A stretch of 13,461 bases of DNA, from contig JBBITJ010000021.1 in assembly GCA_037440825.1 (NCBI GenBank), positions 1 to 13,461 of the forward strand, in the 5' to 3' direction. Source of the stretch: Candidatus Micrarchaeota archaeon (GTDB lineage Archaea; Micrarchaeota; Micrarchaeia; Anstonellales; Bilamarchaeaceae). This document shows, in pieces, positions 4,601-11,818 of the stretch; the first letter of the stretch is position 1, and the number at the start of each line of letters is the position of its first letter. The translations under genes were made by a program, and so were the position numbers. A model generated the notes under the pieces. That model saw only the letters and a list, made by a program, of their open reading frames with translations, searched no databases and was not told where the DNA came from.

Positions 4601-5866
4601 CTACCTTCTGGCGAACCTGTGCCTTCTCGGGCGGTTCATGTGCGAAGGCCTCGGGTCTCCCCCGTATCCGCCGTGGTATGGCCTTCCGCTCCCTCTGTGC
4701 GGTCCGTGCCTGTCCCTGTGCCAGCCGCCGTGGCCGCCGGGTCCGCGGGAACCAGCGTACGGATTGTAGGGGCCGACTTTCGGCCTGAATCCGGCACGCA
4801 CCGGCCTTCCGAAGAACGGGTTAGCCTCCACGAAAGTTATCGCCTTCCCGGTGGCGCCCATCCTTCCCGTCCTCCCTATGCGGTGGATGTGGGTGTGGTG
4901 GTCCATCGCCTCGTCGTAGTTGACCACGAGCGAGATGTTGTCCACGTGCAGCCCCCTTGCCGCGACGTCGGTCGCTACCAGTATGTCGGATTTGCCCTCT
5001 TTGAAGCCATGTATTATCCGCTCCCTCCTGTTCTGCGCCACGTCGCCGTGTATGTAGGATGAGTCGATGCCGGTCTCGCGCAGGCGTTTGCCGACGTATT
5101 CCGCGGCCCTCTGCGTCGCCACGAATATGATTATCTTCCCTGTAGGATCAGCCTGCTTCTGGCTCTTTATTATTTCCACGAGCTTGTCGAACTTCTGCGG
5201 CCTCTCGATCTTAATTTTCTCCTCCGCGATCTCCGGCGGCTTCTCCAGCTCGCCCACTTCCACGGTCTCGTACGACTTCATGTACTTTGACGCGATCCTG
5301 AGCACGTCGTCGTTTATCGTCGCGGAGAAGAGTTGGACCTTGCGCGCGTAGGACGTGTTGGACACGATTTTGTCCACATCCTCCACGAAGCCCATCTCGA
5401 ACATCTTGTCCGCCTCGTCGAGCACGACCAAATCGTATTCGTTGAGGTCTATTGTCCCCCTTTCGAAGAGGTCCAAAAGGCGCCCCGGCGTGGCCACGAG
5501 TATGTCCACTCCGTTGTAGAGCTGCTTTATCTGGGCGTCTATGTTCTGCCCGCCGTACACACATATCACGCGGTAGGGGTAGAACTTCCCGAGCGACCTG
5601 AGCTCGTTCATGATCTGGATGGCGAGCTCGCGCACGGGCGCGATTATGAGCGCCTTCCTTGCCTTGTTCGCTGCAAGAAGCTCGTATATGCCTATTCCGA
5701 ACGCGCAGGTCTTTCCGGTGCCGGTCTTGCTCCTCGCTATCACCTCCTTTCCGGAGACGATGAGCGGGATCACTTTTTCCTGCACTTCGGTGGGGCTCGT
5801 GAACCCCATGGACATCAATCCTTCTAGGGTATTCTGGGAGAGGCCCAAATCCTTGAATTCTACTAT
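4601..5866 (-). CDS. DEAD-box ATP-dependent RNA helicase (start uncertain: ATA 5866 favoured, GTG 5932 alternative)
   Basis: Full motif set: FKDLGL/GF..PTEVQ (Q), SKTGTGKT (I), PVRELA (Ia), TPGRL (Ib), DEAD (II), SAT (III), IIFV (IV), TDVAARGL (V), HRIGRTGR (VI). Basic Gly/Arg/His-rich tail. Confidence 0.95.
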   Translation of the reverse strand: MVEFKDLGLSQNTLEGLMSMGFTSPTEVQEKVIPLIVSGKEVIARSKTGTGKTCAFGIGIYELLAANKARKALIIAPVRELAIQIMNELRSLGKFYPYRVICVYGGQNIDAQIKQLYNGVDILVATPGRLLDLFERGTIDLNEYDLVVLDEADKMFEMGFVEDVDKIVSNTSYARKVQLFSATINDDVLRIASKYMKSYETVEVGELEKPPEIAEEKIKIERPQKFDKLVEIIKSQKQADPTGKIIIFVATQRAAEYVGKRLRETGIDSSYIHGDVAQNRRERIIHGFKEGKSDILVATDVAARGLHVDNISLVVNYDEAMDHHTHIHRIGRTGRMGATGKAITFVEANPFFGRPVRAGFRPKVGPYNPYAGSRGPGGHGGWHRDRHGPHRGSGRPYHGGYGGDPRPSHMNRPRRHRFARR

Positions 5867-6026
5867 GCTAACACCTTTTTCCTTGTTTTGCCTATTGCCT
5901 GTTTTCCGACTTTCCGGTCCGAAAGGACGCACGCTAAGGTAGAATGCGGTTGATTTTAGCGTGTCTCAAACTTATTCTGGCGCGCGAGGCAAAAAGTCAG
6001 CTCGCTCACTAATCGATTTCAAATAC

Positions 6027-6060
6027 ACTCCTTTACGCAATAGGAGTTTATAAGCTTTCG
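6027..6060 (-). promoter_or_regulatory. BRE-TATA promoter for the helicase with adjacent inverted repeat
   Basis: The minus strand reads CGAAAG-CTTATAAA (6060-6047), a typical BRE+TATA. ACTCCT-N9-AGGAGT (6027-6047) lies immediately downstream. Confidence 0.65.
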
Positions 6061-6230
6061 CTATAGCGCGAACGCTACTGCTTGTTCTCCCCGCCCCATA
6101 GAATGAACAGTCTCTCCTCCTTGTCCGAGATGGTGTCGTTGAACGCGCCTGTGAGCTTGACGAATACCTGAAACGGTTTATAACGAGGTGGGAATGGTGG
6201 AAGAAGGGATCGCGGGAACATGTCAGAAAC

Positions 6231-6246
6231 GAGGAACATTTATAAA
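6231..6246 (+). promoter_or_regulatory. TATA promoter of the r-protein operon
   Basis: Purine-rich GAGGAACA followed by TTTATAAA (6239-6246). Predicted TSS near 6268-6271. A second TATA-like TTTATAAC is at 6177-6184. Confidence 0.6.
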
Positions 6247-6277
6247 TCCTTTTCCCATAAATGATAGAACTACGCTT

Positions 6278-6417
6278 TCAGGGCTACTGCCGTAAGGACT
6301 TGTTCTTGATGCAGTTGCCTGACGTTGCGACACTCCTTCCGCAAGGAAGGAATCGGGACGATGGGAAAGGCATACCGTTACTATGCGATTCCAGGGCGAC
6401 AGTGCACGGTGTATACT
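6278..6417 (+). ncRNA. Candidate structured 5' leader RNA of the S17-spc operon (family unrecognised)
   Basis: Four consecutive hand-folded hairpins fill the space between the TATA box and the S17 SD. They include the perfect UCCUUCC-GCAA-GGAAGGA GNRA hairpin at 6334-6351. Confidence 0.5.
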
Positions 6418-6433
6418 CAGACAAGGTGAATGA

Positions 6434-6736
6434 ATGACAGAGAAATGCGATGACAAGAACTGCTATGTCCACTCCGGACTCAAGGTGAGGGGCGGAAGGA
6501 TCGAAGGAGTGGTCGTGAGTGACAAGGGCAAGAGGACCATAATCGTGGAAAAGAACACGACCTCCATCATGCCCAAGTACAACAGGATTTCCAAGAACGT
6601 CAGCCGCGTGCCTGCCCACAACCCGCCGTGCATAAACGCCAAAACGGGAGACAAGGTGCGCATAGGCGAGACCAAGAAGATAAGCAAGACCAAGGCATGG
6701 ACTGTGCTCGAAATCTTGAAGGGCGACAAGCAGTAA
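6434..6736 (+). CDS. rps17: 30S ribosomal protein uS17 (archaeal type)
   Basis: CDDKNCYVHSGLKVRG, GVVVSDK..RTIIVE, PKYNR, AHNPPCI, GDKVRIGETKKISKTK. GGTG SD 5 nt upstream. Confidence 0.97.
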   Translation: MTEKCDDKNCYVHSGLKVRGGRIEGVVVSDKGKRTIIVEKNTTSIMPKYNRISKNVSRVPAHNPPCINAKTGDKVRIGETKKISKTKAWTVLEILKGDKQ

Positions 6737-11807: not shown

Positions 11808-11818
11808 AGGTGAAGGAC

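Follow-up and report, generated by a model that had tools for sequence, protein, structure and literature searches.

The window analyzed here is a stretch of 13,461 nucleotides from an uncultured Candidatus Micrarchaeota archaeon, contig JBBITJ010000021.1, which we refer to as contig C21 of assembly G000 (a metagenome-assembled genome of 875 kb in 45 contigs, 95.6% complete). On its minus strand lies a gene whose product is a predicted DEAD-box RNA helicase of superfamily 2, judged by its domains and signature motifs, and whose translation probably begins at an ATA codon held in place by a Shine-Dalgarno (SD) sequence. Upstream of this gene, the window carries the spc cluster of ribosomal protein genes.

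The helicase gene and its start region

The helicase matches two Pfam families above their curated cut-offs, DEAD (PF00270, residues 26-189, E 9.2e-47) and Helicase_C (PF00271, residues 224-337, E 6.1e-31). Its translation retains FKDLGL...GFTSPTEVQ, SKTGTGKT, PVRELA, VLDEADKM, FSAT, and HRIGRTGR intact, which we take to be the upstream phenylalanine with the Q motif and motifs I, Ia, II (DEAD), III (SAT), and VI, respectively. The features of the locus, together with those of three further genes discussed below, are collected in Table 1.

Table 1. Features of the helicase locus in the window and of three further G000 genes with a near-cognate codon behind GGTG.
Feature	Position	Strand	Remarks
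Predicted DEAD-box RNA helicase, coding sequence from ATA	4601..5866	-	421 codons + TAG stop at 4603-4601; basic Gly/Arg/His-rich C-terminal tail
ATA, proposed initiation codon (AUA)	5864..5866	-	In frame, 5 nt past GGTG
5-nt spacer TTAGC	5867..5871	-	First three bases, TTA, invariant in the five ATA loci
Shine-Dalgarno sequence AGGTG, preceded by an A-run	5872..5876	-	Complementary to the 16S 3' end GATCACCTCC (contig C27)
Upstream in-frame GTG, sole canonical alternative start, judged unused	5930..5932	-	Without SD; 22-codon extension not conserved
Nearest in-frame stop upstream, TGA	5966..5968	-	
Out-of-frame mini-ORF GTG-TTA-GCA-TAG	5863..5874	-	GTG within the SD, stop overlaps ATA (A-TAG); probably incidental
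Putative archaeal promoter, BRE-like CGAAAG + TATA CTTATAAA	6047..6060	-	TTATAAAC box shared with relatives
UppS (PF01255)	C23:7079-7831	+	GGTG + GAAAA + ACG
AspRS (PF00152 + PF01336)	C4:51834-53195	-	GGTG + GAACC + ATC
DUF460 gene (PF04312)	C14:14913-15635	-	ATC in G000
BRE, B recognition element; ORF, open reading frame.

The first-pass annotation, made from the letters of this DNA, had proposed that the helicase starts at a non-canonical AUA behind a correctly spaced SD, and the layout on which the proposal rests is borne out by the sequence and by scripted coordinates. The minus strand reads aaaaaGGTG-TTAGC-ATA-GTA-GAA-TTC-AAG-GAT-TTG, with GGTG at 5875-5872 and the in-frame ATA at 5866-5864. 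Translation of the stretch from the upstream TGA to FKDLGL likewise agrees with the claim that no in-frame ATG is present there, and it contains a single GTG. Past the SD, the nearest in-frame canonical codons are TTG at 5848-5846, which encodes the L of DLGL, and ATG at 5815-5813 and 5809-5807.

The base call at 5864, on which the reading as ATA depends, is matched by an independent contig. A Logan contig of the subsurface-metagenome DNA run X1 (depth 13.3) spans 5500-6184 with 0 differences; because this contig and the assembly of the window may share a source sample, the agreement chiefly excludes a slip by one assembler. The stretch is absent from runs X2 and X3. Contigs of run X1 also differ from the window, at partial depth, by one base inserted behind 6189 and one base deleted at 6223, which points to strain heterogeneity in the intergenic region between the helicase and the spc cluster.

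Shine-Dalgarno usage in the genome

GGTG is the true SD core in this organism, since the 16S rRNA of G000 ends in ...GATCACCTCC. As the first-pass annotation had stated, GGTG precedes the ATG of every spc-cluster gene in the window by 5-7 nt (15/15); 14/14 were located by script, and the remaining gene, L30, has GGTG at 11809-11812 followed by 6 nt and ATG. Genome-wide, in a rough set of 825 open reading frames (ORFs) from a home-made gene caller, GGTG stands 4-9 nt ahead of a canonical start in 268 genes, the start being ATG in 234, GTG in 19, and TTG in 15. The commonest spacing among these canonical starts is 5 nt (123/268), identical to that of the helicase ATA. Pairing at the helicase SD is not extended, as the bases that follow GGUG (UUA) add no complementarity to the 16S tail.

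Conservation of the ATA codon within the genus

The genus comprises eight genomes including G000, and six of them (G000-G005) contain an ortholog of the helicase. In five of the six (G000, G001, G002, G003, and G005), GGTGTTAnnATA is followed by codons for x-E-F-x-x-L, so that ATA, and not ATG, stands at the same distance from the SD. Pairwise identity among these five orthologs is 63-79%, and the ATA, the GGTG, the TTA of the spacer, and the 5-nt spacing are invariant across all of them, while the five leaders cannot be aligned upstream of the A-run, save for a promoter-like TTATAAAC box. Codon choice inside the gene is far more fluid. Only one of the 20 other columns with ATA in the G000 helicase keeps ATA in all five species, and a single codon is kept throughout in one of the 14 all-isoleucine columns and in eight of the 198 columns (among 400 aligned) in which all five species share a residue with degenerate codons. 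The invariance of ATA, GGTG, and 5-nt spacing amid variable coding columns therefore indicates constraint at the nucleotide level. The ortholog comparison lends good support to the reading that translation starts at the AUA spaced from the SD.

In the two remaining genomes of the genus, G006 and G007, the helicase ortholog was not found with this query; the best matches (E 7.7e-7 and 1.8e-9) are other helicases. Since G007 is ~97% complete, the helicase may be dispensable in the genus.

To place the codon in a wider context, we fetched 189 homologous loci, from which 21 duplicates and four that could not be evaluated were removed to leave 164. An in-frame ATG lies at or just before the aligned N terminus in 156 of these, and G004 has only a GTG. 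The other seven have no nearby canonical start: they are the five ATA loci and two loci with longer, ATG-led extensions. Among the 164 distinct loci, the ATA is confined to this Micrarchaeota genus. Other genera of the family have an ATG one codon downstream of the ATA position, mostly behind GGTG or AGTG. A metagenome scan for further members of the genus gave only homologs at ≤45% identity, and a scan of genome contigs recovered the known loci of G005, G003, and G002 again.

Leader, promoter, and an overlapping mini-ORF

The TTATAAAC box of the putative promoter and the bases following it recur upstream of the ATA in G005 (-163), G001 (-135), and G002 (-289). From the position of the box, the helicase transcript would start near 6024 and carry a leader of ~158 nt; predicted leaders among the relatives range from ~135 to 290 nt. 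The upstream GTG at 5932 would then sit ~92 nt inside the leader. This codon had been described as the only upstream alternative, without an SD and within a stem. The former part of that description stands; the stem appears solely in the minimum free energy fold, and the leader folds no better than shuffled sequence. The z score for 6025-5840 is +1.66, with an equally or more stable fold in 194 of 200 shuffles, which gives no support to a leader of the thermosensor or riboswitch type. Neither a cold-box nor a stable structure was seen in the leader. No tRNA was detected in the window, and Rfam gave no hit, either across the whole window with gathering thresholds or in 5840-6450 at E ≤ 1.

A second peculiarity of the start region is the out-of-frame mini-ORF that overlaps it. 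All five ATA loci contain it in the form GTG-TTA-NNA-TAG/TAA, with no separate SD ahead of it, and none of the other near-cognate genes described below has an equivalent. A +1 or -1 shift by which ribosomes would pass from this mini-ORF to the frame of the helicase was ruled out by inspection, as no slippery site is present.

On the opposite side of the intergenic region, a 58-codon ORF (6261-6437, plus strand) starts ~17 nt downstream of a TTTATAAA box and ends in an overlap with the S17 gene (ATGA). Its last codons contain the S17 SD, and no family was assigned to it. It may represent a small, leaderless first gene of the spc operon.

The same layout in other genes

A scan of G000 for SD-spaced non-canonical codons returned three credible cases besides the helicase (Table 1). 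The G000 genes for L37Ae and LeuS, by contrast, start with an ordinary ATG, and a search for Mrp/ParA (PF10609) in G000 gave no match. In UppS, the first canonical codon in G000 is residue 44, past the DGNRRWA motif. The G004 gene also has ACG at GGTG+5, with an in-frame GTG two codons earlier; in the remaining species this position is taken by GTG, TTG, or ATG. In AspRS, the orthologs of G005 and G006 have ATT at GGTG+5, and no canonical codon follows the upstream stop in either. The protein sequence of residues 2-13 is conserved among G000, G003, and G006, and G005 lacks the methionine at residue 14.

The DUF460 gene has ATA at GGTG+5 in G001, G002, G004, G006, and G007. In a family-level sample of 25 loci, 14 have a near-cognate codon (ATA, CTG, or ATC), 10 a canonical one, and one is unclear. 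At seven DUF460 loci the in-frame stop of the gene upstream, which encodes an unrelated hexapeptide-repeat transferase (ending ...QGE*) and includes the SD in its last codons, directly abuts the ATA, CTG, or ATC, for example ...GGT GAG TAG ATA..., which leaves no room for another start. Over the helicase, UppS, AspRS, and DUF460 together, the spacing is exactly GGTG+5 at 25 of 31 near-cognate sites, compared with 123 of 268 canonical starts, a tally that is descriptive only because the near-cognate loci are related.

UppS shows a further oddity in G003 and G007, in which an in-frame insert with stop codons lies between P-D-G and N-R-R-W-A. The G007 insert is five codons long with a TGA; that of G003 is longer, A/T-rich, and has several stops. 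These inserts may mark a split gene or a small intervening element, or may be artifacts of assembly. An AA_kinase gene at C1:4934 (4880-4990) was rejected as a further case, as its SD and ATG stand in a different frame from the conserved ORF of this amino-acid-kinase family gene, with an apparent 1-nt frameshift near G/T runs that reflects either an assembly error or a broken gene.

aIF1 and tRNA genes

The gene for aIF1 (PF01253), found in seven of the eight genus genomes (in G000 at C8:32442-32669, cut by the contig end), starts with TTG 7 nt behind AGGTG at all seven loci. Genome-wide, TTG accounts for 15 of the 268 SD-led starts of G000. Among 29 order-level loci of aIF1, 15 start with TTG, seven with ATG, and four with GTG (two of these from poor alignments); one has GTG directly followed by ATG, and two have only near-cognate codons (CTG at L252, ATT/ATA at L253), so that the start is not ATG in at least 21 of the 29. 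By analogy, the TTG start suggests autoregulation of the infC or eIF1 type.

Transfer RNA genes of G000 were sought with ARAGORN, run with and without introns, with Rfam (34 tRNA hits), and with an anticodon-loop motif scan. Many of these Rfam hits carry introns and measure 85-150 nt. No tRNA with a UAU anticodon was recognized in the assembly, and the same holds for CAU, to which we return below.

Interpretation of the start region

We consider it likely, with a probability of roughly 0.78, that the sequence features of the locus reflect real near-cognate AUA initiation of the helicase, held by SD pairing and serving as a conserved brake on synthesis. An mRNA from the BRE/TATA promoter ~180 nt upstream would carry a long, A-rich, weakly structured leader, on which the small subunit would dock by pairing of AGGUG with the 16S 3' end, ...GAUCACCUCC. 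The 5-nt spacing would put AUA into the P site, where the initiator Met-tRNA may pair with the first and second bases and tolerate a C34-A mismatch at the third. Because aIF1 would disfavor such complexes, the AUA could act as a built-in brake, giving a low helicase output that depends on initiation stringency.

An initiation farther upstream, at GTG 5932 in G000 and at TTG in G005, G003, and G002, is what standard ORF rules would choose, and four of the five ATA loci carry such a codon 15-21 codons upstream, that of G002 with an A/T-rich box ~30 nt ahead of it. The protein would gain 15-21 residues, ATA would be read as Ile, and GGTG would encode part of a Gly-Val pair. We judge this quite unlikely. 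The frame of G001 is closed by a TAA seven codons ahead of the ATA, and the interval contains no ATG, GTG, or TTG, so the 22-residue extension that the first-pass annotation had named as the competing N terminus is interrupted there by a stop; the extensions of the other loci cannot be aligned and share nothing but the SD-encoded K-G-V. None of these codons has an SD, and all sit deep within the leader, at a distance from the conserved TATA at 135-289 nt upstream, which makes them neither leaderless nor SD-led starts. An upstream start would also leave the invariance of the ATA unaccounted for, as 19 of the 20 other ATA columns vary. A start downstream of the ATA, at TTG 5848 or ATG 5815/5809, would use the nearest canonical codons past the SD at the cost of the conserved N-terminal phenylalanine of the Q motif, and is highly improbable: the TTG stands 24 nt away from the SD and is replaced by TTA in G002 and by CTC in G004, the methionine at residue 20 is Phe (TTC) in G001, and the residues preceding these codons are conserved, in line with the ATG at or before the aligned protein start in 156 of 164 homologous loci.

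The mini-ORF offers a different route to the same codon, in which GUG-UUA-NNA-UAG/UAA is translated and terminating ribosomes restart on the overlapping AUA. Its ATA-overlapping stop (A-TAG/A-TAA) and invariant TTA in all five loci fit this scheme, and the seven DUF460 starts that abut an upstream stop imply that stop-adjacent restarts do occur in the lineage. We nevertheless regard termination-reinitiation as very unlikely here, since the GUG of the mini-ORF belongs to the SD and is not itself preceded by one, and since the near-cognate starts of AspRS and UppS manage without such a mini-ORF. The stop itself requires only a purine at the opening of codon 2 (G, G, G, A, and G in the five species), which in five related sequences is weak evidence. 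Finally, the ATA could be a base-call error at 5864 or the relic of a dying gene with no start, as might be suspected in a 45-contig metagenome-assembled genome that also holds the AA_kinase gene with its apparent 1-nt frameshift at the start. The chance of this is close to negligible, given the identical ATA in five separately assembled species, the agreement of the X1 contig, and a 421-codon frame that is open, retains all helicase motifs, and conserves the residue in 198 of 400 columns across the five species.

Several observations nonetheless weigh against AUA initiation as a conserved brake. The sixth ortholog, in the close relative G004, lacks the ATA and reads GGA GTG CAA TTC, with a GC-rich extension that is open to the contig end, and the five ATA loci belong to one genus and may represent a single event. 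Because four of these five have an in-frame GTG or TTG upstream, excluding the extension rests strictly on one species and on the missing conservation. Near-cognate starts are rare, with ~4 credible cases in ~800 G000 genes, and near-cognate codons behind GGTG are not enriched at G000 gene starts (Fisher p 0.47 for AUH at spacer 5), a comparison in which the crude AUH counts are dominated by internal GGTG. The tRNA search described above recognized no CAU-anticodon tRNA (initiator, elongator Met, or Ile2) in the G000 assembly, and no RNA run was listed for the helicase stretch. The invariant TTA of the spacer and the overlapping mini-ORF also lie outside what AUA initiation explains.

Discussion

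The near-cognate starts described here can be drawn together into a broader scheme, which we offer tentatively and consider rather unlikely as a whole. The helicase (AUA), AspRS (AUC/AUU), UppS (ACG), and DUF460 (AUA/AUC/CUG) would form a small conserved weak-start regulon with the common layout GGUG+5, the output of which would be set by aIF1 with its own UUG start. Such a regulon would be an archaeal counterpart of IF3/infC and eIF1 autoregulation, and helicase synthesis would rise when aIF1 is limiting, for example in the cold or during slow growth. A general dependence of these starts on the fidelity factor aIF1 is plausible by analogy with known systems and in view of the TTG start of the aIF1 gene itself. 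The more specific idea of the first-pass annotation, that the AUA could tie helicase synthesis to initiation fidelity or ribosome maturity, is only partly supported, and it is weakened because the unrelated AspRS, UppS, and DUF460 genes have near-cognate codons in the same GGTG+5 layout.

Near-cognate starts of this kind have practical consequences for annotation. Gene finders, restricted to ATG, GTG, and TTG starts, will give the helicase a false 22-residue extension or deprive it of its Q-motif phenylalanine, and in the same genomes will shorten UppS to a point beyond the catalytic motif. The conserved GGUG+5+AUA sites also provide short, concrete substrates for tests of archaeal start-codon fidelity, for which a reconstituted system of the Pyrococcus abyssi 30S subunit with aIF1, aIF1A, and aIF2 already exists. 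They bear on whether archaea, like bacteria, brake expression through weak starts, and the link to aIF1, if true, would give a first indication that archaea possess a start-stringency circuit. Literature searches on archaeal AUA starts, non-canonical starts in DPANN, and aIF1 UUG autoregulation revealed no published conserved AUA start in an archaeal gene.

In E. coli, the start codon of infC is AUU. Unlike in bacteria, start selection in archaea is proofread by aIF1, aIF1A, and aIF2 and not by IF3. The portions of a study of Staphylococcus aureus drawn on here (PMC13009471) describe weak starts behind strong SDs in infC, ccpN, and citZ (AUA) and in cvfC1 (AUU), with AUA and AUU starts yielding ~10% of the output of AUG and up to 30% depending on the medium; they also mention the autoregulation of E. 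coli infC and cite pcnB AUU from Binns and Masters 2002. The helicase resembles the S. aureus near-cognate genes, as far as those portions describe them, in its proposed AUH start, its strong and well-spaced SD, the conservation of the non-AUG codon, and the lack of a usable canonical alternative. Unlike those genes, the helicase has an ordinary SD of 4-5 nt, GGUG, that is not extended.

On the archaeal side, complexes at non-AUG codons are destabilized by aIF1 in Sulfolobus, the same factor proofreads initiation complexes in Pyrococcus, and the eukaryotic eIF1 autoregulates through its own poor start context, according to the sections of PMC6237735 used here. The aIF1 gene of this genus, with its non-AUG (TTG) start, follows the logic of infC and eIF1. 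Unlike for eIF1, those sections of PMC6237735 describe no autoregulation of archaeal aIF1, and the link to the helicase would be an extension of that logic. In ribosome profiling of Haloferax with harringtonine, ~30% of the putative alternative initiation sites were near-cognate, and these were set aside in the part of the study considered here (PMC7261190).

The helicase also shares features with cold-regulated DEAD-box genes, among which deaD of Methanococcoides burtonii has a long 5' untranslated region (UTR): like these, it is a stand-alone DEAD-box gene with an unusually long predicted leader. The cold-regulated helicases covered in the part of PMC1484253 used here are M. burtonii deaD, E. 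coli csdA, and Anabaena crhC, and long 5' UTRs are noted there for E. coli cspA and crhC. No cold-box or stable structure was seen in the helicase leader, and that part of the article describes no near-cognate start for the cold-regulated genes. Overall, the helicase ATA appears to be the known bacterial device of a weak start behind a strong SD, employed in an archaeon.

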